Of a stretch of 64,000 nucleotides of DNA, positions 1-14,914 are shown piece by piece. The position numbers and the translations under genes were made by a program. This DNA comes from Bacillota bacterium. Lineage in GTDB: Bacteria; Bacillota; Sulfobacillia; JAJYWN01. The notes under the pieces are model-generated. The model saw nothing but the letters and a program-made list of their open reading frames with translations, was not told the DNA's origin and made no database searches. Each line of letters starts with the position of its first letter. The stretch's first letter is position 1. The DNA is taken from positions 10,139 to 74,138 of the forward strand of contig JAJYWN010000064.1 in NCBI GenBank assembly GCA_021791495.1, in the 5' to 3' direction.

Positions 1-1158
1 CTCGGGAGGCTTGACGGAACGGCAGACCACTACACAGGCTTCCATCGGTGAGTTATAGAACAAATTCGGCCCCAGCCCCAGCACGCACTCGATCAGGTCG
101 GTCTCGATTAACTTGCGCCGCATCTCCGCCTCCTCCTGCCGGAAGAGAACGCCGTGGGGAAAGAGGATGGCGCAACGGCCAGTCTCCAGGTCCATGCTGG
201 ACAGAATGTGCTGCCAGAAGGCGTAATCCGCCCGCCCCTGTGGGGGCGTGCCAAGGAAGTTGCGCCCCCAGGGGTCCGCGGTAAACTTGGCCCGGTCCCA
301 CTGCTTGATTGAGTATGGCGGATTGGCCAGGACCACGTCGAACTGCATCAGCCGGTCTCCCTGGACAAACTTCGGTTCCGCAAGCGTATCGCCCCGGACG
401 ACCTGAAAGTCCTCGATGCCGTGCAGGAAGAAGTTCATCCGGGCGATGGAGGAGGTCATCAGGTTCCGCTCTTGCCCATAGAGCCGAACGTTCCGCCACT
501 CCTTACCCTGCCGACGCAACTGGGCAATCGAAGAGAGTAGCATGCCGCCGGAGCCGCAGGTCGGGTCGTAGATTGATTCCCCCGGCTCAGGCTGGAGTAT
601 CTCCGTCATCAGGTGGACAACAGTCCGGTTGGTATAGAACTCTGCCGCCGTGTGTCCCGAGTCATCGGCAAACTTCTTGATAAGAAACTCATAGCCGGCG
701 CCCAGTTCATCTTCCGGCAGGCTTGCTACGGAGAGATTGTACATGCTGAAGTGCTCGATCAGATCACGAAGCAGGGCGTCCGGCAGGCGGTCCTTGTTCG
801 TCCACTGTGCGTCCCCGAAAATGCCATACAGCTTCTCCTGGTTTGCCGTCTCGATGGCGCGCATGGCCGACTGAATCGCCTGGCCTACATTCGTAGCCAC
901 TTGCCGCACCTCGCGCCAGTGTGCCGGCGCCGGCACCTGGAAACGGTGGTTCTCTGGATAGGCCGCAAAATCGCAGTCGCCGCCGGATTCCGTCAGGGCC
1001 AACTCCGTCTCCTCGTCAAACACGTCGCAGAGGCGCTTGTAGAAAAGCAGTGGGAAGATAAACTGCTTGTAGTCGCCAGCGTCGATGGTGCCGCGCAGGA
1101 GGACGGCCGCTCCCCACAGGTAGGATTCAAGCTGCTGTTGCGTGATGCGCTGGTTCAC
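1..1158 (-). CDS. hsdM: Type I restriction-modification methyltransferase subunit HsdM (partial, C-terminus lies beyond the window start)
   Basis: The minus-strand frame is open from the GTG at 1158 to position 1. Translation gives VNQRITQQQLESYLWGAAVLLRGTIDAGDYK at the N-terminus and FDVVLANPPYS (N6-adenine MTase motif IV). It is paralogous to the adjacent 1155..2720 ORF, and its GTG overlaps that gene's stop (GTGA). Confidence 0.75.
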   Translation of the reverse strand, partial: MNQRITQQQLESYLWGAAVLLRGTIDAGDYKQFIFPLLFYKRLCDVFDEETELALTESGGDCDFAAYPENHRFQVPAPAHWREVRQVATNVGQAIQSAMRAIETANQEKLYGIFGDAQWTNKDRLPDALLRDLIEHFSMYNLSVASLPEDELGAGYEFLIKKFADDSGHTAAEFYTNRTVVHLMTEILQPEPGESIYDPTCGSGGMLLSSIAQLRRQGKEWRNVRLYGQERNLMTSSIARMNFFLHGIEDFQVVRGDTLAEPKFVQGDRLMQFDVVLANPPYSIKQWDRAKFTADPWGRNFLGTPPQGRADYAFWQHILSSMDLETGRCAILFPHGVLFRQEEAEMRRKLIETDLIECVLGLGPNLFYNSPMEACVVVCRSVKPPE

Positions 1159-2720
1159 TGAACCAGTCCCTCCCGCTTCAGGATGGCAATCAGCTTCACT
1201 TCTGCCGCAAATGCTGACTCGGCAGACGCTTGCAGCCGCCGCATGGCTTCATCTACAGGCACTATCTCGGTCTCATTCTGCGGCTCCACATAGCGCGGGA
1301 TGTTCAGGTTATAGTCGCTATCGGCAATCTCGGCCAGTGTCACAACCCTGGCTGTTCCGTCCACCTTGGCAAAGTCGCGGTACCAGCCGTAGATCCGCTC
1401 CACATGCTCCGGCAGGAGTTCGTTCTGGGCCCGGCCAGCTTTGAACTCCCGGGAAGCATCAACGATCAGGACCTTCTTTTTCCGGTCCGGCTGCTTCCTC
1501 TGCCTGAAGACACAGATGCAGGCGGCCAGTCCGGTGCCGTAAAACAGATTCGGCCCCAGCCCTATTACCGCTTCAAGCAGGTCCATTTCCAGCAGCTTCT
1601 TTCGGATGGTGCCTTCCTGCCCCATCCGGAAGAGAGCACCGTGGGGCAGGACCACTGCCATGCGGCCGGTGGCCGGAGCCATCGACCTGATCATGTGCTG
1701 GACCCAGGCATAATCGCCGGTTCTGGCTGGCGGCATCCCGGCGAAATTTCGGCCGTAAGGATCGCTGGCCCAGATCTCGTCACCCCACTTCTCCAGGGAG
1801 AACGGCGGATTGGCAATGACGCAATCGAAGGCCGCCAGGTTGTCGCCAGAGTAGAACGCCGGATGGCGTAGGGTATCATCTCGCACGATCTGGAAATCCG
1901 CGGCGTTGTGGAGAAAGAGGTTCATCCTGGCAATAGCGGCAGTAGTCAGGTTCTTCTCCTGGCCGTACAGCTTGCCCCAGAGGGTCCGATCGTCGCCGAG
2001 ATTCTGACGGACATGGTGGACTGCTTCCAGCAACATGCCACCGGTTCCGCAGGCCGGGTCGTATATCGACTCGCCTTCCTGTGGGTCTAGGATGTCAACC
2101 ATCAGCCGAACGACAGGTCGCGGCGTGTAGAACTCGCCGGCCTTTCTGTTGGTCAGATCGGCGAACTTCTTGATCAGGTACTCGTATGACTGGCCAAGGA
2201 TGTCGGCCTCCGCCGACTGATTCCCAAGGCTCATTTTGGAGAAGTGCTCCACCAAGTCGCGGAGCAGCGAATCGGGGAGCCGCTCCTTGTTTGTCCAGGC
2301 CGCATCACCAAAGATGCCGTAGAGCGTGTCCGGGTTCGCCTTCTCAATGTTCCGCATTGCCGTGTGCAGCGCCTGACCCACGTTCGCCGCGACGCTACGA
2401 ACGTCGTTCCAGTGAGATCCCGGCGGGATTTGGAAGCGGAAGTTCTGCGGGAACTGGGCGTACTCCTCATCGCCCCCCGATTCTGCCAGCGCAGCGGCGT
2501 ATTCCTCATCGTAGACGTCCGATATTCGCTTGAAGAAGAGAAGCGGGAAGACGTAGGTCTTAAAGTCAGCCGCGTCCACCGGGCCGCGCAGGATGTTGGC
2601 TGCCTCCCAGAGGTGAGATTGAAGCTGGCTAAGCGTGGTTCCGTAGACGGCCAAGCGGCAATCACTCCCCGCACTTCGGCTAATAACGTAAATGTCACGT
2701 GGGCTCACCCCGGTGACCAC
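1155..2720 (-). CDS. hsdM: Type I restriction-modification methyltransferase subunit HsdM (N6-adenine DNA methyltransferase)
   Basis: A 521-aa ORF with the HsdM N-terminal domain (LSQLQSHLWEAANILRG), the FDCVIANPPFS motif, and an AdoMet-binding region (DPACGTGGML). Confidence 0.85.
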   Translation of the reverse strand: MVTGVSPRDIYVISRSAGSDCRLAVYGTTLSQLQSHLWEAANILRGPVDAADFKTYVFPLLFFKRISDVYDEEYAAALAESGGDEEYAQFPQNFRFQIPPGSHWNDVRSVAANVGQALHTAMRNIEKANPDTLYGIFGDAAWTNKERLPDSLLRDLVEHFSKMSLGNQSAEADILGQSYEYLIKKFADLTNRKAGEFYTPRPVVRLMVDILDPQEGESIYDPACGTGGMLLEAVHHVRQNLGDDRTLWGKLYGQEKNLTTAAIARMNLFLHNAADFQIVRDDTLRHPAFYSGDNLAAFDCVIANPPFSLEKWGDEIWASDPYGRNFAGMPPARTGDYAWVQHMIRSMAPATGRMAVVLPHGALFRMGQEGTIRKKLLEMDLLEAVIGLGPNLFYGTGLAACICVFRQRKQPDRKKKVLIVDASREFKAGRAQNELLPEHVERIYGWYRDFAKVDGTARVVTLAEIADSDYNLNIPRYVEPQNETEIVPVDEAMRRLQASAESAFAAEVKLIAILKREGLVQ

Positions 2721-3223
2721 CCATGAACAAATCTGTTTCCATGCCGATTAATCACTTTCCTGGTAATTCGTGAGTTCTGCCAGGCTATCTCCAGCCTTTC
2801 TGTCCAGTGTCGTCGCCTGGGACCAGAAGACGAACACGGCGTCGCCATCCCAGGCAGCAACCCGTCTCTTCGGCGTGGCCACTTGTGAGCGAAGGGAAGC
2901 GCTCCGTTTCCCCTTTTTCGTGGCCGCCAAATCCGGACAAGTATTGGTCCCACAACACCGGTCGTTTCCGTCCCGGCCACTGGGGCGGTTTCCCACGCTC
3001 TGTCGCAATTCCGTGAGCGACGTGGCACCAGATTTCAGGTCTTGGGGGTGATTCACAGATGAGGGTGATTCAGCGGCTGCAGGACTTGAACTACCTGCGT
3101 TCCGCAAACGTGCTAGACGCCGCAGTTCTCTCACAAGCGGAGAAACAGTAGGCGTCACTGTTTGGCATACTCGGCGGTGGCAGATCCGAAGAGACGTTTG
3201 ACCTGAGAGACCATGGCTTCATC

Positions 3224-3460
3224 GTGCTGCTGGAGAAAGGCGACAACATTCGGAACCTGTCCATCGTCGGACTCGGCCCGGCCGTCGGTGGCCTCTTCGG
3301 GTGCCACCCGGAATACGTCGAAGTCGTCCACCTGGGACAGACGGCGGTCTACAAGATGGTCAGCGTCTATAGCAACGACGCTGTCATGTACTTCCTCCTT
3401 GCCGCCGGTGACTTCGACCGGGAGGTGGAGGACTGGCTAGTGCAACACGTTGGCCGCTAG
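3224..3460 (+). CDS. hypothetical small protein (78 aa)
   Basis: ORF directly upstream of the radC-like gene. No recognizable motifs. Confidence 0.25.
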   Translation: MLLEKGDNIRNLSIVGLGPAVGGLFGCHPEYVEVVHLGQTAVYKMVSVYSNDAVMYFLLAAGDFDREVEDWLVQHVGR

Positions 3461-3501
3461 CCGCTTCGTGAGCAGGACCTAATATCTCGGAACTCTACAC
3501 A

Positions 3502-4008
3502 ATGGAGAAGGAGGTGGCGCGGCAGCCCCAACGGGCTGCCGCTTTTGTCATGCCTGAGAAGGAATCGAGAAAGAGGGTCGACCTGGTCCGCCTGAAGATG
3601 GTGCGGGAGTCGTCGACGCTCTACGAGCCGCGCCGGATCGAGTCGCCGAAGGCGGCGGCGGACCTCTTCCGCCAGTTCATCGGCGACGCCGACCGGGAGC
3701 AGATGATGGTCTGCTGCCTGGACGTCAGGAACCAACCGACGTGCCTACATGTGACCAGCATTGGCACGCTGGCCGCCGCTGCGGTCCACCCGCGCGAAGT
3801 ATTCAAGACAGCGGTCCTAGCCAACGCGGCCAGCATCATCGTCGGCCACAACCACCCCAGCGGGGACTGCGCCCCGAGCCGGGAGGACATCGAGGTGACC
3901 AGCCGGCTCCGTGAAGCCGGGCGTGTCCTCGGGATCGAGGTCTTGGATCACGTCATCGTCGGTGGAGCAGCGCACGTGAGCCTGCGCGAGCAGGGAATTG
4001 TGGCCTAG
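3502..4008 (+). CDS. RadC-like JAB/MPN domain protein (DUF2466 family; typical of mobile-element or anti-restriction regions)
   Basis: The C-terminal domain carries the conserved HNHPSG motif and the ED..TSRL pattern characteristic of RadC-like JAB proteins. Confidence 0.8.
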   Translation: MEKEVARQPQRAAAFVMPEKESRKRVDLVRLKMVRESSTLYEPRRIESPKAAADLFRQFIGDADREQMMVCCLDVRNQPTCLHVTSIGTLAAAAVHPREVFKTAVLANAASIIVGHNHPSGDCAPSREDIEVTSRLREAGRVLGIEVLDHVIVGGAAHVSLREQGIVA

Positions 4009-4048
4009 CCTCTTCACCGCAATCATCGCTTCGAAAGGGGGGACCACC

Positions 4049-4123
4049 GTGGACCCGCTCTTGCTGTTGGAGATCGCAGTCGCGATCCTACTCGTTGTGC
4101 TGAAGCATGAGGACAAAAAGTAG
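4049..4123 (+). CDS. putative 24-aa hydrophobic peptide (small membrane peptide, type I toxin-like)
   Basis: A GTG start preceded by AAGGGGGG at SD-like spacing. The translation MDPLLLLEIAVAILLVVLKHEDKK is a single TM helix with a KK tail. It was not in the ORF track because it is under 60 aa. Confidence 0.3.
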   Translation: MDPLLLLEIAVAILLVVLKHEDKK

Positions 4124-4249
4124 AAATGACGGCGAACTCGCCGAGTCACTCCGCATGGTTGCAAGCTTGTATCGTTTGTACTCCACTATTGCGGGCTGGA
4201 TCGGAGTAGTGTCGCAGCAGTATTAAAGCAACTACGTCCAGAGGCGGAG

Positions 4250-4627
4250 GTGAGTGTTCTGGACAGTGATAGCAGACCTGCGCCGATACGTTGTGAGAGG
4301 CGCGGTGGCTTTGAGATCCGCATTCTTGCCGAGGAGCACTTGCCCCTCACGGCAGCCGACCGCCTGGCAATCGGGGTTGAGCCGTTCCTCAAGCACGGCG
4401 CATTCTTTCGAGCAACGTGGTGGGAGGGGTATGGGCAGCGGCCATCCATTGACGTAGCTGTCGTCAAGAGTGAGACGGATGCTGAGGGGCAAGGAGACGC
4501 GTGGTCTCTCTCTGGGGAGAGTCCATCTGATTTCCGCCGAGTAGTGAATGGGCTTCGGGAGAGCGGACACCGTTTCCTTTGGCGGGAGCTCGACTACGAC
4601 GACGGTCTGCTGGGAGGGCCGACCTAG
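4250..4627 (+). CDS. hypothetical protein (125 aa)
   Basis: ORF with a GGAGG-like sequence upstream. No recognizable domains. Confidence 0.35.
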   Translation: MSVLDSDSRPAPIRCERRGGFEIRILAEEHLPLTAADRLAIGVEPFLKHGAFFRATWWEGYGQRPSIDVAVVKSETDAEGQGDAWSLSGESPSDFRRVVNGLRESGHRFLWRELDYDDGLLGGPT

Positions 4628-4689
4628 CAACGCTGCCAGGTCCTCCTTTTTTTTCGTTGTGCGCCATGTTCGCTCCCACGAAGACGCCG

Positions 4690-6140
4690 GGAACCCCAGA
4701 ATCGTCGAAACGCCGGGCCTCGCCAGCCGCCCGGCCCGGAAGACCCCCCAGGGCGTAGCTCGGGAGCCTGCTGCTCGCTTGCGAGCCCACTTGCGGCCCT
4801 GGACCGGCAGTGAAGCGTTTGGGCTCGCGCGTGCTTTCGGCCCGCCCTTGTGAGCCGTTCCCGTCCACTCGCCGCCGCCGGGCGCCCGGCCGGCTAGGCA
4901 TGCCAGAAACTCCGCCCTTCTTGTCGCACTCGCTCGCGAGTCGGCGCTTGTTCCCTACTTCACAAGGGCGGGTTTCAACAACTCCATGTGCGATATGGAA
5001 ACGCGACGGCTAGCCGGTGGGCGCAGAAGCGTCACCTTTCCGGTCTTGCCGCGCCTCGGGCCCCGAGCCCCCGTTGGACGCCGCTCCGGGGCCCCCGGCG
5101 ATCCCCGTCCGGATTTACGCCCCTTCCGGCTCGACCGGGGGTGCAGGCCGTCGGTGGCGGCTTGCCTGCCGGCCTGCCCGGCTATCGCCGCCGACGGGTG
5201 GTCCGCTGCCCGAGAAGCCGGAGGGCAGGCGGAGGGCCCCTGCGGCCGCGCGCCCCGGCAAGCCGTGGAGATCGACGCTCCGCGGCTCCCTGGTTGGCTA
5301 GGGCGTCGGCCAGTAACTTGGTAGGGAGTTTGGCCAAAGGCCGTCTCGGTCGTCCTGGGGCTGAACCCGTAATCGCCGCTCCCCGCCGGGCCATCCGGCC
5401 CGAGCGCCACCAGGGCGTCGCTCAAACGCCTGCCCCCGCTCGGGGGCCCGCCTTTCGGCCTTGGACCGATAGTTGCGCCCTTTGGGCTCGCGCCAGCTTG
5501 CGGGCGCTCGCGGGAGCCGTCTTTGCTTGATCGCCGCCGCGGGGCGTCCAGCCAGCCAGGCAAGCCAGGAACTCCGCCCTCCACCGTCACTCATGCTTGC
5601 AGGCCGACAATTCTTCCAGATTCCACGATGGCAGGAGCTAACAAATATATGTAGGGCATCAAAACGCGACAACTGCCCGACGGGCGCAGAAGCGCCGCCG
5701 TTGCGGTGTTGCCGCCCCTTCGAGCCTCGAGCACCCGTCCGACGCCGCTGCGGGGCCCTGGGCAATCACCGTCCGGATCTACGCCCCTTCCGGCTCGACC
5801 GGCAGGGCCGGCCGTCGATGGCGGCTTACCTCCGGGCCTGCCCGGTTACTGCCGCCGACCGGCGGTCCGCGGTGGGGGAGGCGGGAGAATGGGCGGAAGG
5901 CGCCCGCGCCCTCGCGCCCCGGCAAGCCGTGGAGATCGACGCTCTCACGGACCCATGCCAGGTCTGGGCGTGGCTTTGACACGGGGTAAGGGTTCCGCAG
6001 TTGCGGCCAGGCACAGAGCACTGGTCAGCCGACCTGCATGCCGTCCATTCCAGATGAGGATCACCCAACTCGCCGCCAGAAGCACCGAAAGCCATCGCAC
6101 CGCCCCAGTGCTCGTTGTTCAACCAGGAAACCCGAGGAGG
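4690..6140. repeat. tandem array of about 2.3 diverged ~664-bp repeat units (partial unit ~4690-4815, unit A ~4816-5479, unit B ~5480-6140)
   Basis: Direct sequence comparison gives a consistent 663-664 bp offset. TTTGGGCTCG is at 4818 and 5481, AAACGCGAC at 4999 and 5662, and GATCGACGCTC at 5270 and 5934. Identity is about 80-85% over ~300-bp cores. The region is GC-rich and every reading frame is Arg/Pro-rich. Confidence 0.8.
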
Positions 6141-6227
6141 TGGTGGCCCTATGAGCGGATAACGCGGCTCCCGCCGCCGTGAACCCCGACTCAACATAAA
6201 ACCACACCATAGAGGAGGCTGAACATC

Positions 6228-6776
6228 GTGGATAAGAGACCGATCCCAAAGCCTGGCCCAAAGGGCCTCGCTGTTCCCATCGTGAGGCGAACCGTCAGCT
6301 ATCCGAAGGAGGACGCAACGGCGACAGCCGCACCCGACGCTTTCGGGCTAGCCGAGTTCGCCCAAGAGTGGCGCGAGACCGACGCTATGGCGGATTTCTC
6401 CCGAATTCCCAACGGCGTCTACGCCGTGGAGGTCAGGCGGGTGGGTCTCCGCCGCAAGGAGCCCGATGTCTACCTGGACTGGGTCCTGCAGGTCGTGGAA
6501 GGCGACCACGCCGGGAGGCAGGTTCGGAAGTCCCTGCCCTTCCGGTTGGGCAAGACCATCCGGTACCTCAAACACGACCTCTCGACGGTGGGGCTGGGCG
6601 ACGTCGAACTGCAAGAGCTGCCGCCTAGGCTGCAGGAAGCGCGCGGCCGGTTGGTCGAGGTCCGCGTGAGTGGCCAGGAAAACCTGCCGGACGTCTGGTT
6701 CGCCCGAGGGCTGTCGGAGGAAGCCGGGGACAACGGCCCTGTGGACGAAAGCCCTGATGATCGAGGGACCCTATGA
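6228..6776 (+). CDS. hypothetical protein, paralog family 1 of 2 (shares the DLS.VGLG.VELQ.LP motif with 8781..9224)
   Basis: GTG start with AGAGGAGG 8 nt upstream. Its stop overlaps the start of the next gene (ATGA). Confidence 0.55.
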   Translation: MDKRPIPKPGPKGLAVPIVRRTVSYPKEDATATAAPDAFGLAEFAQEWRETDAMADFSRIPNGVYAVEVRRVGLRRKEPDVYLDWVLQVVEGDHAGRQVRKSLPFRLGKTIRYLKHDLSTVGLGDVELQELPPRLQEARGRLVEVRVSGQENLPDVWFARGLSEEAGDNGPVDESPDDRGTL

Positions 6777-8332
6777 AGAAGTCGAGAGTCCAGACTGGCG
6801 GGGGGCCGGGGCGCCCCCCCGCCCCTCCACCCGGCGGTGCGCGTCCCACAATCGACACGGGGCACAGAAACCTGGCGGAGATGACGGCGGCGGCGTGGGA
6901 GGCCATGCGCCTGGCGAACGGGGACGAACCTAAGTACTTCGCCTCCGGCTCGCAGGTGGTCATGCTTGTTGACCGAGGCCAGCAGTTGCCGACGGTCTTG
7001 GCCCTGGATTTCTATTCCCTTCGCCGGGAACTCGCGACCTGTACCGACTGGATGCGCTTTGACGGGGACGGACACCCCTGGGACGAGTTTCCCGTCAAAG
7101 CCTGCGTCGAGACGATGTTGTCTTACCCCAATCCACCCCTCCCCGCACTCAACCGGGTGGTCGGAGTCCCGGTCCTGAGGCCGGACGGGACGCTACTAGA
7201 CCGCGCCGGGTACGATGCGGTTTCGGGGCTGTACCTCTACCCGACCTGCGACGTCGTTCTGCCAGACGGCCAACTGGGACCCGACGACATAGCCGCGGCG
7301 CTGGCCGTGATCGACGCCCTCCTGTGCGACTTCCCCTTCGTCGGGAGCGCGGACAGGGCGTTGGCGTTCGCGACCCTGCTGGAACCGTTCGTCCGGGAGA
7401 CGTTCGAGGGGCCAACGCCCCTCAGGTGCGTCGACGCGGTTTCCGGACAGGGAACCGGGAAGGACCTCTTGGCGACGACGCTAATGTACCCGTTCGCCGG
7501 CCGCGAGGAGTCGGCCCTGACCGAAGGGAGCACCGACGACGAGTGGCGGAAGAGGCTGACGGCGGCGTTGCTTCGGAAGCCCACCTTCATCTACATAAGC
7601 AACGTGCAGCGCACCCTGGACTCGGCGGCTCTGGCCGCCGCCCTGACGACCACCAACTGGGAGGACCGCATCCTGGGCCAGAGCCGGACCGTCGTCCTCC
7701 CGAACCGGAGCACTTGGATCGCGACTGGGAACGGAATCACCACTTCGCGGGAACTCCGTCGGAGGGTCCTCAAGATCGTCCTGGACGCGAGGCAGGAGTG
7801 CCCGTGGTTGCGCACGGGCTTCCGCCACAACCTGGTCGAGTGGCGCCAGGAGCACCGAGGCGAGATCGTCGGGGCAGCGCTGACCCTCGCCACCGCCTGG
7901 GTCCAGAGGGGGCGACCCCTGGGCACTGCGGTTCTCGGTTCCTACGAACGGTGGGCTGCGACCATGGGGGGAATCCTGGACGCCGCCGGCGTCCCAGGAT
8001 TCCTGGAGAACCTGGGGGGCGCCCAGGAGTCGTTCGATGAAGAGACCAGGCAGCTTCTGGATTTCCTCCGTGCCTGGTGGGCGACGTTCGGGAGCCGTGC
8101 CGTGACCGCCGGGGAACTCCGCACCGGCCTGTCCGAAGACGTGCTCCCGCTGGCCGTTTCCGACGGATTCTCCGGCGGCCAGACGATCCGCCTCGGGAAG
8201 CTGCTGGTGGGCCTAGTGGGGCGGCATCTTGGAGGCGTGCACGTCGCCTTGGCAACCCCGGACAGGTCCCGGAAACTCCAGCGTTACCGGCTGGAGACGG
8301 TGGAGACGCACCCACAGTTCCCGGAGGTGTAG
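6773..8332 (+). CDS. hypothetical 519-aa protein (mobile-element associated; degenerate P-loop-like GQGTGKD segment; possible replication/primase-helicase-like function)
   Basis: A long ORF translationally coupled to the upstream small protein. There is no confidently recognizable family. Confidence 0.5.
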   Translation: MKKSRVQTGGGPGRPPAPPPGGARPTIDTGHRNLAEMTAAAWEAMRLANGDEPKYFASGSQVVMLVDRGQQLPTVLALDFYSLRRELATCTDWMRFDGDGHPWDEFPVKACVETMLSYPNPPLPALNRVVGVPVLRPDGTLLDRAGYDAVSGLYLYPTCDVVLPDGQLGPDDIAAALAVIDALLCDFPFVGSADRALAFATLLEPFVRETFEGPTPLRCVDAVSGQGTGKDLLATTLMYPFAGREESALTEGSTDDEWRKRLTAALLRKPTFIYISNVQRTLDSAALAAALTTTNWEDRILGQSRTVVLPNRSTWIATGNGITTSRELRRRVLKIVLDARQECPWLRTGFRHNLVEWRQEHRGEIVGAALTLATAWVQRGRPLGTAVLGSYERWAATMGGILDAAGVPGFLENLGGAQESFDEETRQLLDFLRAWWATFGSRAVTAGELRTGLSEDVLPLAVSDGFSGGQTIRLGKLLVGLVGRHLGGVHVALATPDRSRKLQRYRLETVETHPQFPEV

Positions 8333-8780
8333 GCGGGGCCAATCCCCGAAACGCCCGTATCCGAAAGTGCCAGCTCAGGTGGCAGATGACGGGGGGCTCG
8401 GGAAGATCGGGTAGTTGCCGGCCCCCCGAAAATGGCCGTTCGGCTACGGAAAGGGCTGGGAAGGGTCCGGCGCCTCCCCGCTCTCCCCGAACTCCCCGGT
8501 CGAAACTACCATACGGTCGCTGATCAACCGCGCCCTTCTGGTTCGCCCCGCTCTGCCATGCTGTCGATCCTGCCCACTCCGGTCCATAGCTCCTCCGGCG
8601 CTAGCCACGGCCGGGGGGGTGTGGGCCAGCGTGGGCAGTCCATGCCATACTCCCAATCGAGGGGAGGTCAGAATGCACATGGGTACGTGACTGACGCACG
8701 CTGCCGCCCGAGCGCGCTATTGAGGTTGCGACAGCATCTCTCGCTACGTTCAAGACTACTCTGAGGAGGCTAAACAAACG

Positions 8781-9224
8781 ATGCTCAGCGATTCCATACC
8801 GAAACCAGTCGCGGTGACGGTCTTCCCCTTAGCGGGCGACCGACCAGTGTTAGTGGTTGTGGGCTTGAGGGGTCTGGTGGGCCTGGAGGCGACCGGACCC
8901 ATTCCGAGCGCCACCTACAAGGCAACAATCCGGACAATCGACCTATGCAAGGGGAAAGACGGCTATGTCCTGACCTGGGGCCTGGTAATGGCTGGTGGGG
9001 ACCTAGACGGCCGGTACTTTGAAGTGGTACGTGGTCCTTTCGAGGAAGGCGAGAGGTACGAGGATGTCCGGCTGGACCTCTCCCTGGTGGGACTCGGCGG
9101 GGTTGAGCTCCAGCAACTGCCGTGCGTTCTCGGCGTCGCCTTGGGTTACACCCTGGACATCCTCGTCTCGGGCGCGAATAACATCAAGTTCCTCTGCTCG
9201 TTGAACCAGATGCAGGTTGACTGA
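8781..9224 (+). CDS. hypothetical protein, paralog family 2 of 2 (related to 6228..6776)
   Basis: ATG with CTGAGGAGGCTAAACA upstream, similar to the leader of 6228. It has the shared C-terminal motif DLSLVGLGGVELQQLP. Confidence 0.5.
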   Translation: MLSDSIPKPVAVTVFPLAGDRPVLVVVGLRGLVGLEATGPIPSATYKATIRTIDLCKGKDGYVLTWGLVMAGGDLDGRYFEVVRGPFEEGERYEDVRLDLSLVGLGGVELQQLPCVLGVALGYTLDILVSGANNIKFLCSLNQMQVD

Positions 9225-9580
9225 CGCAGCGCAGTACTCTGGCTCCCCGATCCGGCGGGAGGGGCCGCCCCTGACCCCTTCCCCGGCGTCGGTGTCACAC
9301 GCTGCCTATGCGCGCCCTAGTCGCCCCTACGCCCCCCGGGGAAGAGCCGGCGTTTCCGGATGGCAGCGGCATTTCCGGAAGCGATGGGTTAGCCGAGCTG
9401 GGGCGATAGAGGCGGGGGCATAGGGCGCGGAAACAGGACTGTTCGCTCCCCATGGGAGCTGTGGGATGCACCATCCCAGCTAACAACGCTACCGCCCTGA
9501 GAGTTGTCCTGAGTGTCCTACGAGACCAGCCTCCAACCGCTTCGTCAATCGACTGGGACAGATATCATTCCTGTGGAGGA

Positions 9581-9802
9581 ATGCAGATGCTGATCGAAGA
9601 CGCAACGACTTCAAACCTAGACCGCTCGGGAGCGGCCACGGAGATGCTCACCGTCGCCCAAGCCGCCCATTTCCTTCGCTTACATCCTGCCACGCTCTAC
9701 CGGCTCGTCAAGGAAGGGGCCCTGCCGTGCATCCGGCTCGGCAGGCTCATTAGGATTCCCATGTCGGCCATCCTTGGGTTGGTAAGGCCGTCTGCGATGT
9801 AA
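9581..9802 (+). CDS. xis: excisionase-family helix-turn-helix DNA-binding protein (Xis); the start may be at 9644
   Basis: LTVAQAAHFLRLHPATLYRLVKEGALPCIRLGRLIRIP matches the excisionase/MerR-like HTH family. It sits immediately upstream of the integrase. Confidence 0.65.
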   Translation: MQMLIEDATTSNLDRSGAATEMLTVAQAAHFLRLHPATLYRLVKEGALPCIRLGRLIRIPMSAILGLVRPSAM

Positions 9803-9905: not shown

Positions 9906-11120
9906 ATGTCGATCCGGAAGACCAAATATGGCACATACGAAACCAAGGTCTACCAGGGGGTGGACCCGGCCACCGGCAGAGAAGCCTACGCCTACCGGAC
10001 GTTTAAGACCAAGGCCGAAGCGAAGCGCTTCGAGGCCGATGCCAAACGCTCCGTTGAGGAGCAGGAGCACAGACCACCCACAGAACTGACCGTCGTCGAG
10101 TTCCTTCAGGAATGGCTGGAGAAGGACGTCAGGCCCAACCTCAAGCGCCGCACCGCCTTGCGCTACGAGCAGTTGATCCGTGTCCAGGTCGCGCCGGCCA
10201 TTGGGCGCGTCCCGCTTGCGAAGCTCTCGGCGCGCGACGTGGCCAGCTTCCTTGCGGGCCTGAAAGCGCAGGTTGCCGATCGGACCCGCCTGCACGCCTA
10301 CCGGGTCCTCCATCGGGCGCTGAACGTCGCCGTCCAGTGGGGCCTCGTTGGGAGGAACGCTTGCGACGGGGTGAAGGCTCCGAAGGCGGCTCAGCCGGTG
10401 CTCCACGTGCTAGAGGCATCCGAAGTCGAGGCCCTCCTGAGGACGGCCAAGAAGGAGAGGATCTACCCACTCGTCCTGACCGCAGTCATGACGGGAATGC
10501 GCGTTGGAGAACTGTGCGGGTTGCGGTGGCAGGACGTAGACTTGGAGGATCGCGTGGCCACCGTGGCACAGGCGCTTGACAAGCCGGGACTGCAGCCCCT
10601 GTTCACGACGCCGAAGAACAGAAAGACACGCAAGGTTCCCCTTGCCCCGGATCTCGCGGAGACGCTGCGCGCGTGGCGGGCGGGGCAGGCGAAGGAGAAG
10701 CTGTTCTTCGGCCAGGAGTATGTTAGCATGGGCCTAGTCTTCTGCCAGCCCGACGGGCGTCCCCTGAACCCTCAGAGCCTGACCAGGCATACCTGGAAGA
10801 GGATCAGTAGGGCTGCGGGATTGCCCAACGGCATCCGATTCCATGACCTCCGGCACACCTTCATCTCAAGGGCACTGCAGGCCGGGGCTAACCCCAGGGC
10901 AGTCGCCGAGATTGCCGGACACCATGACGCGTCGTTCACGCTGCGAGTGTACGCCGGCGTGACCCTGAACGACTCCAGGGAGGCGGTGGCACAGCTCCAG
11001 GACTACCTGGCATTCAAGGGAGGCGGCCTCGTCCCAGCCCTGGCACCGGCAGACCGGCCTTCGCCGTCGACGAGCTCAAGCCGAAGTCCTGGCCTCCGCC
11101 TTCGCGTGTCGAAGGCATAG
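9906..11120 (+). CDS. int: tyrosine-type site-specific recombinase / phage integrase
   Basis: It has an N-terminal SAM-like domain and the C-terminal catalytic signature (R..HDLRHTF..Y). The C-terminal low-complexity tail may be read-through. Confidence 0.85.
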   Translation: MSIRKTKYGTYETKVYQGVDPATGREAYAYRTFKTKAEAKRFEADAKRSVEEQEHRPPTELTVVEFLQEWLEKDVRPNLKRRTALRYEQLIRVQVAPAIGRVPLAKLSARDVASFLAGLKAQVADRTRLHAYRVLHRALNVAVQWGLVGRNACDGVKAPKAAQPVLHVLEASEVEALLRTAKKERIYPLVLTAVMTGMRVGELCGLRWQDVDLEDRVATVAQALDKPGLQPLFTTPKNRKTRKVPLAPDLAETLRAWRAGQAKEKLFFGQEYVSMGLVFCQPDGRPLNPQSLTRHTWKRISRAAGLPNGIRFHDLRHTFISRALQAGANPRAVAEIAGHHDASFTLRVYAGVTLNDSREAVAQLQDYLAFKGGGLVPALAPADRPSPSTSSSRSPGLRLRVSKA

Positions 11121-11220
11121 CACCAATAGGTGGTAAGCATGCAGCCAGAAGGCTCCAAGGAGGGCCAAGCCAAAGTTGCTGGTCGAGTTGCCGTTTCTGG
11201 CCAGCTTCCAAGTGACCAAC

Positions 11221-11258
11221 CGAAACCCTCCCTTTCACTACAGGGCGGGAGGGTTTCG
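11221..11258. other. perfect 12-bp inverted repeat (CGAAACCCTCCC / GGGAGGGTTTCG) with a 14-nt loop
   Basis: Seen directly, 100 bp downstream of the integrase stop. There is no U-tract after it. It could be a structural or recombination-related hairpin, or a factor-binding site. Confidence 0.5.
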
Positions 11259-11755
11259 CGTTGGCGCTATCCTGGGAAGGAATCGCCCCTACCTCTTGCC
11301 GAAGAAGCATCTGGCCCTCACGGTTTCGTCAAGGGAGTGGCAGTGTTGTTGTCTCCGCCGTTACTGCGGTTTCCTGCGGATTACCCGCCCGATTGCCCGA
11401 TTTCCGGGGCTCATCCCGTCACCTGGTCCGTATGGTACTTGGTGGATCAGTCGCCACCATCCGCCGATGACTTCAGGCCTTTGGCTGTAAAAGAGGGTCG
11501 AGCGAACTACGAGCGACGCAACAACCGACAGAAATGCATGGCCAGGGGCATATCTGTTTGGACGGACAGGTCGGCTGTCCTGGTTGCGCAGTCTCTAAAT
11601 CCGGGACTGGCGGGAAAGCTGCTTGCGCGTGGTACGATAAAGCCTACAGATGGCTGGGTGGCTCAAACGGGGGGAAATCCTGCCCACCACACGTGGTGGC
11701 CTTTTGAAGGAGTATCTCCGCATACGATTTTCCAGGTTGAGGGGAGGTGAGCGGA

Positions 11756-12946
11756 GTGGCCCACGAGATTGAATTGTTGACTCCTTTCGGGGTGCTGGGC
11801 ATAAGCGAAGTTTGGGTCGAGTTCAACGGGCCTCGGCTGTTCACCTGTGAGAACGCAGCCGGACATGCCTACATAGGGATGTGGGTCATGGAAGGCAAGG
11901 ACAGGGATGTTTATCTCTTTATGGCCGTCAGCCATGAACGTCTGGAAACTATACGCAGAGGCATGATGCCATTGTGTGTGGCTATCGTTTCTTCCGAATG
12001 CGGTATTGAAGAGGTCACCTTCTTCCCGGACGGTTCGGTAGCCAAATCCCGACACCTGGATGCGGAGCAGATCCCGAAAGAGTACCTCCCCTCAGAGGAT
12101 GCGGTAGTGACAATCTACGAGGATCAGGAACACCGAGAGCCCGAGATCACTTCGGTCACAATGGCTGTTCGAAGCCGGCGGGAGATCGTGGACGTGTGTG
12201 TTGATGGGGGAGCAGCTAGATTCCACGAATTGCAGACCAGGCGCCTAGGGACCCTCCTACTGAACACCCAAGATCTCTTGGATGACCTTGCCAACCCGGA
12301 ATCCGCCACCAGAGGAAGATTGCCCAAGGCGCTGATTGACGAGACGCAGTTCAATGCACTACCGGTAGCCGCAGGTTCTTTCCGAATACGTCTGGCGTCG
12401 GCCAATGCTTGTGACCTCTTCTTTGACACGGGAATGGCGACCAAAGCGGCAAGACAGATGGTCGACCTCATCCAGGCGTGTGCCAAGCCGGATAGCCTCG
12501 GGCCTGCTGCAGAAGGCATCGGCCCTCGCGCAGCAGGGAAGCTTCGTGACCTGTTGGGCGATCTGTCCGCTGATGGACTGAGCCTAACTGTGGACTGGGG
12601 ATCGCCTGCCGACCACAGGAACGTGGCACGGCTTTCCGGTAGGGAGGTTCACGAAGCTTTCACTGCCCTCACCCAGAAAGCCCTACCGGTCTCCTCCATC
12701 TTCACGGTCCATGGAAGGCTGACCGGTCTGGACACCGATAAGCGGTCCTTCAGGTTTCACGCTGACGACGGCAGTCTGTACACTGGATCATATACCGACA
12801 ATTGCGCGGAAGAAGTTCTTATGCGTCTGGCCAGGCAGGAAGGCGGGACGCCGTCGACCGCCACTATCGAGCAGATAGTCGTGGTTGTCCCGGCGACTGG
12901 GGAAACCAAGACAAGCAACATATTACGGACGTTGATCCCGGATTAG
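11756..12946 (+). CDS. hypothetical 397-aa protein (orphan cargo gene; the start may alternatively be GTG at 11747)
   Basis: A long ORF with GAGGGGAGG upstream. Its composition is of lower GC than the flanks. No recognizable domains. Confidence 0.55.
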   Translation: MAHEIELLTPFGVLGISEVWVEFNGPRLFTCENAAGHAYIGMWVMEGKDRDVYLFMAVSHERLETIRRGMMPLCVAIVSSECGIEEVTFFPDGSVAKSRHLDAEQIPKEYLPSEDAVVTIYEDQEHREPEITSVTMAVRSRREIVDVCVDGGAARFHELQTRRLGTLLLNTQDLLDDLANPESATRGRLPKALIDETQFNALPVAAGSFRIRLASANACDLFFDTGMATKAARQMVDLIQACAKPDSLGPAAEGIGPRAAGKLRDLLGDLSADGLSLTVDWGSPADHRNVARLSGREVHEAFTALTQKALPVSSIFTVHGRLTGLDTDKRSFRFHADDGSLYTGSYTDNCAEEVLMRLARQEGGTPSTATIEQIVVVVPATGETKTSNILRTLIPD

Positions 12947-13134
12947 GAGGTGGACGCAAGCCGACCCGGGCATTCTCCGACAGCCGAAACGCTTCCACGC
13001 GCTCCTTTCCACGATTGAGCTCCCTCTCCGGCCTCCGAGAGCTGCCTCCACTTGGTTCAATTTTGCGAGAGAAGCATCTCCGTGCCCGACGACAAACCGC
13101 AAACAGTAATGTCAAGATGACTGTCCCGCGGCAG

Positions 13135-13210
13135 AATCCGGGGTCGGCAAAAGACCGCCCCGGGGGCGGTACGCGCAAATCGTTGTCCGGTAATTGCGCC
13201 CGGGAGGACT
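13135..13210. repeat. att-like direct repeat copy: duplicate of the tRNA-Arg(CCU) 3' end plus its downstream hairpin region
   Basis: CAAATCGTTGT...TGCGCCCGGGAGGACT (13176-13210) matches 14821-14856. AATCCGGGG...hairpin (13135-13175) matches 14767-14820. Confidence 0.7.
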
Positions 13211-13729
13211 TTAGCCACCGCGCCGGTCTCTTGTCAGAATCGTGTCCACCAAATCTGCGTATTCCCGTGAGCCCTCCACGCGCGGGCCAGCATCGTGCTC
13301 GATAGCGTGCCGAGCTTTCTCCAGCGGAAGATCGGCCAGAGTACGGGCGATTGCCCAAACGCCTTGCTCCCGCTTCTGTGTTGGTAGATTCTTGACCCCC
13401 AGGGTTTCCGCAAATCGTCTTAGATCCTTGGCCTCCGGCAGCAATTCTCGAGACATCATCTGACTCAACACCTGGGATAAAAAAGCATACATCTGTGGGT
13501 TTTGTTCCCTCAACTCAGTCAGGAAAGCGGATCGTGTGCTTTTTGCCTTGCTTCCGGGGCGCAAGTCTCTACGGGCATTGAGCTTATCCAGAGATCGCAA
13601 AATCCTGCCGAGAGGTTCGGTCTCCGAGTCACCTTCCAGGATGCTGGTGACGTCAAGAATATCCCGTCTTGAGTACGTCTCCCCAATGATCAGCATTTCA
13701 AGAAGTAGCTTCTTGTTTGTTGTCATCAC
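13211..13729 (-). CDS. hypothetical protein, putative ParA partner (172 aa)
   Basis: It overlaps the parA stop by 4 nt (ATGA). Low-GC composition. Confidence 0.5.
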   Translation of the reverse strand: MMTTNKKLLLEMLIIGETYSRRDILDVTSILEGDSETEPLGRILRSLDKLNARRDLRPGSKAKSTRSAFLTELREQNPQMYAFLSQVLSQMMSRELLPEAKDLRRFAETLGVKNLPTQKREQGVWAIARTLADLPLEKARHAIEHDAGPRVEGSREYADLVDTILTRDRRGG

Positions 13730-14565
13730 AGGCCCACCTTCGCGGCGAACTCCTTTCCAAATGCTTCAAACTCATCTATCACGTTGCTTCTCGCATACTC
13801 CGTATGGAAGATTGCGGTCTTGTCTCTGGCCCCCCGTGGATATGATCGTGAATGGCGAACTTCGTTTACGAACACAGGCCAACCGTACTGTAGCGCTCGC
13901 TCCTTGACCTCAGCCCTAGCCTGGTTGTGTTCCGCGTATGAATAGGATGGGTCGGCGTCGTTGAAAACGATGCCGGCGATCTGTACTGTTGCTGTTCTGT
14001 GTGAGCGCCGGAAATCGTCCAGTGAACGGACTAGCAACGGCAAGCCTATGGCAGCTAGGAACTCCGGCTTTACGGGAATCAAGACACTGTCGCTAGCTAA
14101 ATAAGCTGCCACGGTTAACATCGATTCAGTCGGAGGGCAGTCCAGAAGAATCAGATCATATTTGTCACGAACATCAGCGAGGAAACCTGCCAACAGGTGT
14201 TCCTTGCTAGCCGGGTTCTTCAGCGTCCATGACAACTCCAGCAACGACGGGACCAAGTCAATAAGACTTCCATCGGTCCATCTCTTGACCCGCTTAATCA
14301 TGCTCTCAGGGGTGATCTCTTGCCTCGGTGCTATGGTTGGAGTGAACTGCTCGAAGATGTCAAATACTGTCGGTGCGTGTTGGTCCAGATGCTTTCGATA
14401 CTCTACAACACCCATTAAGTACTGACTTGCGTTGGCTTGGGGGTCCAAGTCGACAAGTAGTACTTTCTTGTTCCGTCTATACGCCACATACCAGGCCAGA
14501 TTGAACGCCAGCGTGGTCTTGCCCACGCCTCCTTTCATGTTGATAACAGCAACGGTGACGACCAT
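13726..14565 (-). CDS. parA: ParA/MinD-family partition ATPase
   Basis: Deviant Walker A motif MKGGVGKTT with LVDLDPQANAS. Confidence 0.85.
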   Translation of the reverse strand: MVVTVAVINMKGGVGKTTLAFNLAWYVAYRRNKKVLLVDLDPQANASQYLMGVVEYRKHLDQHAPTVFDIFEQFTPTIAPRQEITPESMIKRVKRWTDGSLIDLVPSLLELSWTLKNPASKEHLLAGFLADVRDKYDLILLDCPPTESMLTVAAYLASDSVLIPVKPEFLAAIGLPLLVRSLDDFRRSHRTATVQIAGIVFNDADPSYSYAEHNQARAEVKERALQYGWPVFVNEVRHSRSYPRGARDKTAIFHTEYARSNVIDEFEAFGKEFAAKVGL

Positions 14566-14766
14566 TTCAAGCTCCCCCTCTTTCCTTCGTTTGGTAAATG
14601 GGGTTCGCCGCCTGGTCGTTTGGTCCCTGTCCTATTACTCCTTCGTTTTGGCCGATCATTTGACCGTGACGTATAGGGAGGGCCACGCATGGTTCGATGA
14701 TTGGACACGGCATACGGACATGGGCGGCAAGGGCACTGCAGGTTCCAGTTTGGGCACGACTCTGCC

Positions 14767-14856
14767 TAATCCGGGGTAAAATCCGGGGTGGTCCGAAGAC
14801 CACCCCGGGGTTGGTCGGCACAAATCGTTGTGCCGCAATGTGCGCCCGGGAGGACT
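14767..14856. repeat. att-like direct repeat copy at the tRNA-Arg(CCU) 3' end, including a perfect terminator-like hairpin CCGGGGTGGTC-CGAA-GACCACCCCGG (14784-14809)
   Basis: See the matching copy at 13135-13210. Confidence 0.7.
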
Positions 14857-14914
14857 CGAACCACCGGCACGCGGTTTAGGAAACCGCTGCTCTATCCACC
14901 TGAGCTACGGGCGC
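14841..14914 (-). tRNA. tRNA-Arg (anticodon CCU)
   Basis: Manual cloverleaf: acceptor GCGCCCG, D-loop AGGTGGATAGAGC, anticodon loop TTCCTAA, T-arm GGTTCGAGTCC, discriminator A, and no encoded CCA. Confidence 0.85.

Follow-up and report, generated by a model that had tools for sequence, protein, structure and literature searches.

A ParA operon between copies of a tRNA-Arg(CCU) 3' end: a probable tandem integration site in a Bacillota bacterium

A ParA-type ATPase gene and a small partner gene lie next to a tRNA-Arg(CCU) gene in a 64,000-nucleotide stretch of DNA from a Bacillota bacterium (assembly GCA_021791495.1, contig JAJYWN010000064.1, 10,139 to 74,138; hereafter the window), and on their far side the end of the tRNA gene occurs again. 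Does this arrangement represent one genomic island, or several elements that entered the same tRNA gene and came to lie in a row? The first-pass annotation of the window had proposed either sequential integrations or a satellite-like mini-element. We conclude, at a probability of about 0.62, that the locus is an accreted tandem array, consisting of an integrase-less ParA mini-element beside the tRNA gene, similar to a cis-mobilizable element (CIME), and an 18.3-kb integrase island behind it. Three copies of the tRNA 3' end in the same orientation bound two adjoining intervals, in the order tRNA, ParA unit, tRNA fragment, integrase island, tRNA fragment.

Three copies of the tRNA 3' end

The intact tRNA-Arg(CCU) gene, the target gene on the attL side of the proposed attachment (att) sites, is on the minus strand and was located at 14840-14914 by ARAGORN and at 14841-14914, at full length, by Rfam (60.5 bits; gathering score, 29). 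The shared core consists of the final 16 nt of the gene (14841-14856). The window contains exactly two copies of this 16-mer (plus-strand TGCGCCCGGGAGGACT), one at 13195-13210 and the other at 14841-14856, and three matches were found when up to two mismatches were allowed, against 0.09 expected by chance, the third lying in another tRNA-Arg gene. The similarity includes the DNA downstream of the tRNA gene: the block 14771-14866, which comprises the tRNA 3' end and about 70 nt beyond it, aligns to 13126-13220 on the same strand (95/96 nt, one 1-nt indel). Identity in the repeat search was 77% over 69 nt and 88% over 26 nt, BLAST aligned 87 nt at 80.5% (E = 1.4e-13), and the Smith-Waterman score was 90 against 21.6 +/- 2.0 in shuffled sequences (z = 34.8), confirming the duplication about 1.6 kb away that had been noticed in the sequence alone. 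The inner copy had been placed at 13135-13210, which holds the core and arm, and the aligned block begins about 9 nt farther left, at 13126. The motif CAAATCGTTGT and the hairpin AATCCGGGG, both reported to recur, are present in either copy.

Beyond the core, the tRNA-proximal arm (D', 14771-14840, minus strand; repeat families D1 and D10) contains two clean hairpins with 8-bp and 11-bp stems followed by AUUUUA. It folds at -38.8 kcal/mol (z = -4.7) and probably terminates the tRNA transcript. Within D' the sequence AATCCGGGGT is present twice, as seen in a comparison of shared 9-mers. The corresponding arm of the inner copy (D, 13126-13194) is about 77% identical to D'.

Comparison of the T arms located the left edge of the tRNA homology. 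On the tRNA strand this arm reads GGTGG-TTCGAGT-CCTCC in the tRNA gene and GGTGG-CTAAAGT-CCTCC followed by CGGGCGCA in the inner copy (13196-13220 region). The homology thus begins within the T loop, with the 5' strand of the T stem, GGTGG, retained, and farther upstream the match drops to background (6/14 nt). In total 23/26 nt of the inner tRNA fragment match, and the 16 nt of the core are identical, yet four of the next five nucleotides differ. Homology that starts in the T loop with GGTGG kept is as expected for a core of the T-loop or junction type; the anticodon loop (A) and the T loop or junction (J) are recognised crossover subsites of tyrosine integrases that target tRNA genes (tDNAs) (PMC4383910). 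A perfect 16-mer beside a 77% identical arm is also suggestive of a recombination junction between related att arms, which it fits better than uniform decay of a duplicate. We estimate the probability of such a contrast under drift at roughly p = 0.02-0.13; as selection acts on the tRNA copy, the contrast can suggest such a junction but not establish it.

The DNA to the left of the window was reached through the RadC gene (locus L003, one of the roughly 200 loci fetched, which are given L numbers here; a position in L003 equals the window position plus 6499). The window is 99.99% identical to contig DAIBIV010000026.1 of the metagenome-assembled genome GCA_027420595.1, with 2 mismatches in 20.8 kb. 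A search for an outer att site, recommended in the first-pass annotation, was successful: a third copy of the tRNA 3' end lies at L003 1340-1383 (window-equivalent -5159 to -5116), about 5.1 kb left of the window start and 19,993 bp from the tRNA gene, in the same orientation. It matches window positions 14834-14877 over 44 nt with 1 mismatch and, beginning in the anticodon loop on its 3' side, extends through the tRNA 3' end and 7 nt beyond (CATTGCG on the tRNA strand). ARAGORN calls no tRNA at this place, so the copy is a displaced fragment. The displaced fragments differ in subsite: the inner one ends in the T loop, the outer one in the anticodon loop. In the functional tRNA-Arg(CCU) (14841-14914) the T stem is interrupted midway by a U.U mismatch, and the outer fragment has an identical T-arm sequence.

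These copies define a tRNA-proximal interval of 1,646 bp, which is free of recombinase genes, and a distal interval of 18,347 bp with the integrase/excisionase island. The integrase is the sole one at the locus; it is found in the tRNA-to-outer and the inner-to-outer intervals and not in the 1.6-kb tRNA-to-inner interval. Apart from the outer fragment, no further copy of the block was detected in the 64-kb window plus 6.5 kb to its left, none was present in the fetched loci, and the att pattern was unmatched in IMG/VR. We therefore rejected a dispersed repeat family, one of the two findings that were to have overturned the initial proposal: these 70 kb, the roughly 200 loci and IMG/VR yielded no extra copies. 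From the anatomy of the copies we infer that the junctions were made by site-specific recombination of a tyrosine integrase.

A low-GC ParA cassette

Only the ParA gene and a 172-amino-acid (aa) open reading frame (ORF) sit between the tRNA copy and the inner copy, both on the tRNA strand. As had been noted, they are low in G+C content (GC): 0.51-0.52 at 13501-14500, against 0.64-0.70 right of the tRNA gene, where housekeeping genes are found (NanE-like, aldo-keto reductase, TldD/PmbA), and 0.62-0.65 over the integrase region. The first gene (13726-14565, minus strand) encodes a 279-aa ATPase of the ParA/Soj type with a deviant Walker A motif (Pfam AAA_31, 1e-37, and CbiA, 2e-21; PHROG ParA-like, 4e-48; Soj/ParA structures in the PDB, up to 3e-21). 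The motif KGGVGKT is invariant, an N-terminal helix-turn-helix (HTH) is absent, and 1,794 homologues were found at E <= 1e-20, the best of them 53-65% identical and spread across many phyla.

The partner (13211-13729, minus strand; 172 aa, 171 aa as called) is an all-helical protein that follows this ParA subfamily. It gave only weak SAP/Rho_N-like signals and may carry a HeH/SAP-like DNA-binding motif. The partner matched no recombinase fold or family and is not a recombinase; nor is there one among the genes of the ParA unit. Its stop codon, TAA, lies inside the T-loop equivalent of the inner copy, so the operon ends exactly at the core with zero spacer. The final codons and stop (GGT GGC TAA) overlap the inner copy's T-arm-like portion at 13208-13222, and the unusual C-terminal tail of the protein, DRRGG, may be encoded by att-derived sequence. 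Upstream of the ParA gene, where the low-GC tract starts in the GC profile (14566-14770, minus strand), a 9-mer self-comparison revealed the short direct repeats TCCTTCGTTT and TCGTTTGGT, each present twice, which may be operator or centromere-like sites for the partner. A known defence system was considered for the pair and rejected, since PADLOC gave a match only at the P-loop level for ParA and none for the partner.

In other genomes the two genes form a recurrent cassette. A profile search of genome contigs with the ParA alignment returned at least about 10 subfamily loci among the matches listed, and in every complete subfamily locus examined the partner directly follows ParA. In high-GC hosts the cassette is a sharply bounded low-GC islet of about 1.5-1.7 kb, seen in at least 8 other genome contexts, with a GC 10-25 points under that of its flanks in hosts from many phyla (L120, L121, L012, L015, L057, L123, L049, L176-L182; ParA at about position 10001 in most). 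The GC of cassette and flanks was 0.42 and 0.65 in L120, 0.48 and 0.62 in L121, 0.48 and 0.65 in L012, 0.51 and 0.62 in L015, 0.44 and 0.62 in L057, 0.33-0.37 and about 0.6 in L123, and 0.50 and 0.68 in L049. Some copies stand solitary among housekeeping genes and others within islands; that of L010 is 5 kb from an integrase adjacent to a transfer-messenger RNA (tmRNA) gene, and that of L006 lies beside Dam/DndB and serine recombinase genes. A tblastn search of the 72,556 plasmids in PLSDB gave 0 matches for the partner and 1 distant match, 38% identical, for ParA. A plasmid partition origin was accordingly rejected, the subfamily being essentially absent from these plasmids and its copies chromosomal. 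An instance in E. coli was sought for a presence/absence comparison, and none was found.

The closest ParA relative (P0003, 65% identity) is encoded on contig CAZEDT010000021.1 (GCA_964510795.1) of a low-GC organism (L004, 8803-11517), where order and orientation match those of the window: tRNA-Thr(CGT), terminator, ParA, partner and tRNA fragment. The second copy at this locus consists of the 3' half of the tRNA (48 nt, from the anticodon stem) and 49 nt of the terminator region. The two copies (96/97 nt) are 98% identical and 2,591 bp apart, and the block is nearly as long as the 95/96 nt of the window. Between the partner and the second copy lies about 0.8 kb of non-coding DNA containing a scrap that we read as IstB-like; beyond the second copy there is a helicase/methylase/restriction island, and no integrase was found within 8.5 kb. 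Flanking duplication as a general property of the cassette was rejected, because only these two tRNA-linked loci have one; a weak signal in L006 is AT-rich noise.

That the ParA unit has an origin separate from that of the integrase island is well supported, because it is low in GC, because the same cassette recurs with sharp boundaries elsewhere, and because its closest relative is likewise bracketed by copies of a tRNA end, at tRNA-Thr.

Tandem array, single island and other explanations

A relative of the integrase with 54% identity is encoded in a xis-int pair located 135 bp from the 3' end of a tRNA-Trp gene, in the same convergent layout as here. Since the integrase genes of relatives stand directly beside the tRNA, the 3.7 kb between integrase and tRNA in the window represents extra DNA, which consists of a 206-aa and 399-aa gene pair, the inner copy and the ParA unit. 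For the relatives found by protein search (61% and 54% identity), a second att site was absent from their contigs; relatives from metagenome and viral scans reached at most 34% identity.

The architecture belongs to a known kind, that of tandem tDNA islands and CIME accretion. An intact tDNA with displaced 3' fragments is a recognised island signature and tandem arrays have been documented (PMC4383910); evolution through CIMEs and site-specific accretion is likewise established (PMC5704250). The ParA unit resembles the CIMEs of ICESt1/ICESt3-type tandems and other tRNA arrays in being flanked by att sites and devoid of integrase and transfer genes, as in the definition of a CIME (PMC5704250), and in standing at a tRNA 3' end in tandem with an integrase element, with a chimeric internal att site between the two. 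Retention of both attL and attR by the unit is seen in the sequence only, as an identical core at both ends and related arms. It differs from CIMEs in its very small size (1.6 kb, just one intact operon) and in that the two tRNA fragments end at different subsites. There is also no sign of a conjugative origin and there are no pseudogene scraps in the window unit, whereas L004 keeps its IstB-like scrap; cis-mobilisation here is putative.

With the tandem islands recovered by Islander/TIGER the locus shares an intact tDNA followed by two 3' fragments on the same strand, of the A and J classes (PMC4383910), and the integrase lies within the tRNA-to-outer interval, which is the island signature used by Islander. 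A strict tandem member carries its own integrase and spans at least 2 kb (PMC4383910), and with 1,646 bp and no integrase the ParA unit falls short on both counts. The parA-shi cluster of ICEclc is similar in having a ParA ATPase and a small downstream partner at an att boundary (PMC6812849). The ICEclc-type ParA clade is distinct from the partition ParAs of plasmids and chromosomes (PMC6812849), and the subfamily of the window is likewise absent from plasmids. In contrast, Shi is an 85-aa HicA-like protein followed by parB (PMC6812849), and here we found a 172-aa helical partner without HicA similarity and no parB. Type Ib ParA/ParB cassettes also have a short ParA without N-terminal HTH, a small partner next to it and short direct repeats upstream of parA, but the present pair is found on chromosomes as solitary islets and not on plasmids, and its upstream repeats are a candidate centromere. 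Long att identity blocks are known from actinomycete and phage elements, with about 112 bp in SLP1 and about 182 bp in HP1. As at the present locus, att identity in these elements runs from inside the tRNA to well past its 3' end and includes the terminator; they differ in encoding their own integrase there, whereas here the long block brackets an integrase-less unit.

If the locus is a tandem array, the proximal interval would comprise a GC-rich att arm with the tRNA terminator (D') and then the foreign low-GC ParA-partner operon up to the next core, and the ParA unit could be moved only by an integrase from elsewhere or together with its neighbour. The distal island would bring defence cargo, comprising type I restriction-modification, RadC and a pair weakly similar to PD-T4-10, together with a primase-like gene for replication. 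Three histories can be envisaged. The ParA unit may have been the final arrival, entering the intact tRNA by a T-loop crossover with an integrase acting in trans. Alternatively, a larger ParA element may have come first and decayed, with the island then entering its distal att site. Finally, the composite may have formed elsewhere and integrated as one 20-kb piece, a history that merges into the single-island explanation discussed below. All three orders of arrival fit the sequences. Judging from its boundaries the ParA unit may be mobile: excision would give a 1,646-bp circle with a predicted junction of GGCGCGGTGGCTAA, AGTCCTCCCGGGCGCA and CATTGCGGCACAACG in succession and would leave a scar of the tRNA followed by ATTACCGGACAACGATTTGCG, and in a fully empty site the tRNA would be followed by CATTGCGCGGGCAACAGTGCAG.

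Several observations weigh against a tandem array with a mobile ParA unit. The initial proposal of sequential integrations or a mini-element is supported in part, by the anatomy of the locus, the outer att site and the independent origin of the ParA unit, but among the contigs recovered with the flanking genes there was neither an empty site nor an excised circle, nor any strain without the unit. When the exact proteins NanE, ParA, RadC and a relative of TldD were looked up, all matches came either from this strain (99.9-100% identity) or from contigs ending inside the tRNA. The latter contigs, two of them assembled from the same sample and the third from a related species (80-84% nucleotide identity), carry no information on occupancy, as a contig break in a tRNA is expected for a conserved, repeated sequence. 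In these short-read assemblies L119 ends at window position 14886, L002 starts at 14853 and L122 ends at window-equivalent 14887. In addition, the hairpins of the inner copy are degenerate (fold z = -1.0), so that the duplication of the terminator region claimed in the first-pass annotation is true of sequence ancestry more than of function, and the inner copy may be a dead fossil. A 9-mer comparison revealed no arm-type motifs above chance in common between any pair of putative P/P' arms. Finally, 10 or more other cassette loci have neither an adjoining tRNA nor a flanking repeat, indicating that the cassette moves mostly as plain cargo. In the window it could stand between att copies because a larger element decayed, and not as a dedicated mini-element.

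Much of this would be accommodated by one 20-kb island with the tRNA and the outer fragment as attL and attR, the ParA pair as ordinary cargo and the inner copy as a non-functional fossil, left by an older accretion or by an internal deletion mediated by an integrase before the island entered this genome in a single integration. The 44-nt block common to the tRNA copy and the outer fragment includes the 7 nt CATTGCG that the inner copy lacks, which fits a single 20-kb composite with the outermost pair as attL/attR. The degenerate inner hairpins, the presence of one integrase only and the mostly plain island cargo context of the cassette elsewhere (L010, for example) point the same way, and in ICEclc the parA-shi cluster belongs fully to the element and sits beside its attL end (PMC6812849). 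The inner copy still requires some earlier tandem or accretion event, however, so this explanation differs from a tandem array only in timing and present mobility. Moreover, a perfect 16-nt core is unexpected in an old, unselected fossil, and the 98%-identical repeat of L004 shows that such units can be recent. We regard the single island as unlikely, yet as the main rival explanation.

Entry without site-specific recombination is very improbable. In this case homologous (Campbell-type) or illegitimate recombination at a copy of the tRNA end, or an insertion with a duplication of about 96 nt, would have produced the repeat with no integrase involved. Such a process could account for the nearly equal block length in two independent cases (95/96 and 96/97 nt), and the 97-nt block of L004, at 98% identity and with no integrase within 8.5 kb, is long enough for RecA-dependent recombination. 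In the window, by contrast, only 16 contiguous nucleotides are identical, too short for efficient homologous recombination, and 10 or more other insertions of the cassette lack a flanking duplication, so long target duplications are not characteristic of the cassette. The boundaries of homology also coincide with the T loop and the anticodon loop, known integrase crossover subsites. As for chance, or convergence of two GC-rich terminator hairpins beside a tRNA-like 16-mer, both arms do have GC-rich hairpins able to look alike, but the alignment statistics (z = 34.8 against shuffles, BLAST E = 1.4e-13) exclude chance similarity, and with the non-hairpin motif CAAATCGTTGT and a collinear order of parts in both copies, and with a third copy present, its probability is negligible.

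A tandem array illustrates layering at a tRNA integration hotspot, where a tiny integrase-less unit can hide between att copies. Island callers drop any interval under 2 kb or without an integrase; they would therefore describe the locus as a single 20-kb island and overlook its internal att site as well as the ParA unit's separate history. The ParA-partner pair may be the weightier result: off plasmids, with a strong GC deficit across phyla and beside defence islands, it is a candidate for some uncharacterised function linked with mobile elements, and the two att-flanked copies offer an experimental handle on cassette movement. A farther-reaching proposal, which we rather doubt, is that the pair is a self-contained, widespread low-GC cassette of an undescribed functional class (island maintenance, exclusion or defence) and not of plasmid partition, and that the tRNA-flanked units, which in two unrelated genomes have repeats of about 96-97 nt, are minimal integrative elements measuring 1.6-2.6 kb, each made of one operon and an att/terminator block, which parasitise the integrases of tRNA-targeting islands. 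If true, they would constitute a size class missed by finders that require an integrase and at least 2 kb.

The integrase island and neighbouring genes

Counted from the outer fragment, the locus contains a 60-aa ORF, HsdR, an HsdM-S fusion, HsdM, RadC, small ORFs, a DUF669-like gene, a primase/helicase-like gene, a 147-aa gene, an HTH_17 Xis-like gene, the tyrosine integrase, the 206-aa and 399-aa DUF6575 genes, the inner copy, the partner, ParA, the tRNA and core genes. As originally described, the integrase, the excisionase and the 399-aa gene lie beyond the inner copy. The integrase (9906-11120, plus strand) is a full-length protein of 404 aa whose gene reads toward the tRNA (Pfam Phage_integrase, 1e-32, and SAM_3; PHROG integrase, 8e-76). 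It is preceded by an excisionase-like gene of the AlpA/Xis type on the same strand (9452-9802; Pfam HTH_17, 5e-13), called as 71 aa at 9587-9802 (L001/L117).

The two-gene cargo next to the integrase (11130-12946, plus strand) encodes a 206-aa protein and a 399-aa DUF6575 protein (11747-12946; Pfam DUF6575, 4e-12). PADLOC gave weak, partial matches of this pair to PD-T4-10_A (2.5e-5) and PD-T4-10_B (6.5e-7). By this similarity the 399-aa gene, first regarded as an orphan, may be half of a two-gene anti-phage system carried as integrase-proximal cargo.

The island body occupies window positions 1-9224 and extends to the left of the window (Pfam, PHROG and L003 gene calls). Within the window it includes HsdM (499 aa, 1155-2654, minus strand), RadC (3502-4008), the DUF669-like gene (182 aa, 6228-6776), the primase/helicase-like gene (519 aa, 6773-8332) and the 147-aa gene (8781-9224). 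The type I restriction-modification genes comprise two HsdM-like genes (499 aa, and the 893-aa HsdM-S fusion) and HsdR (window 1155-2654, L003 1998-9153), all on the minus strand and reading toward the outer att site. The adjacent segments 4731-5280 and 5395-5944, each of about 550 nt, are 75% identical and represent a diverged tandem duplication around a 202/211-aa gene.

On the other side of the locus, upstream of the tRNA, the related species has 6.9 kb of other genes in place of NanE. Directly past the outer fragment there are 4-5 copies of GGTCGCNAGTTTCCGGAAT, spaced about 23 or 46 nt apart (L003 1210-1330; window-equivalent about -5290 to -5170), which could be arm-type or iteron-like sites of a further member of the array. 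Farther left of these repeats lie MNT/HepT toxin-antitoxin genes and a 765-aa gene.

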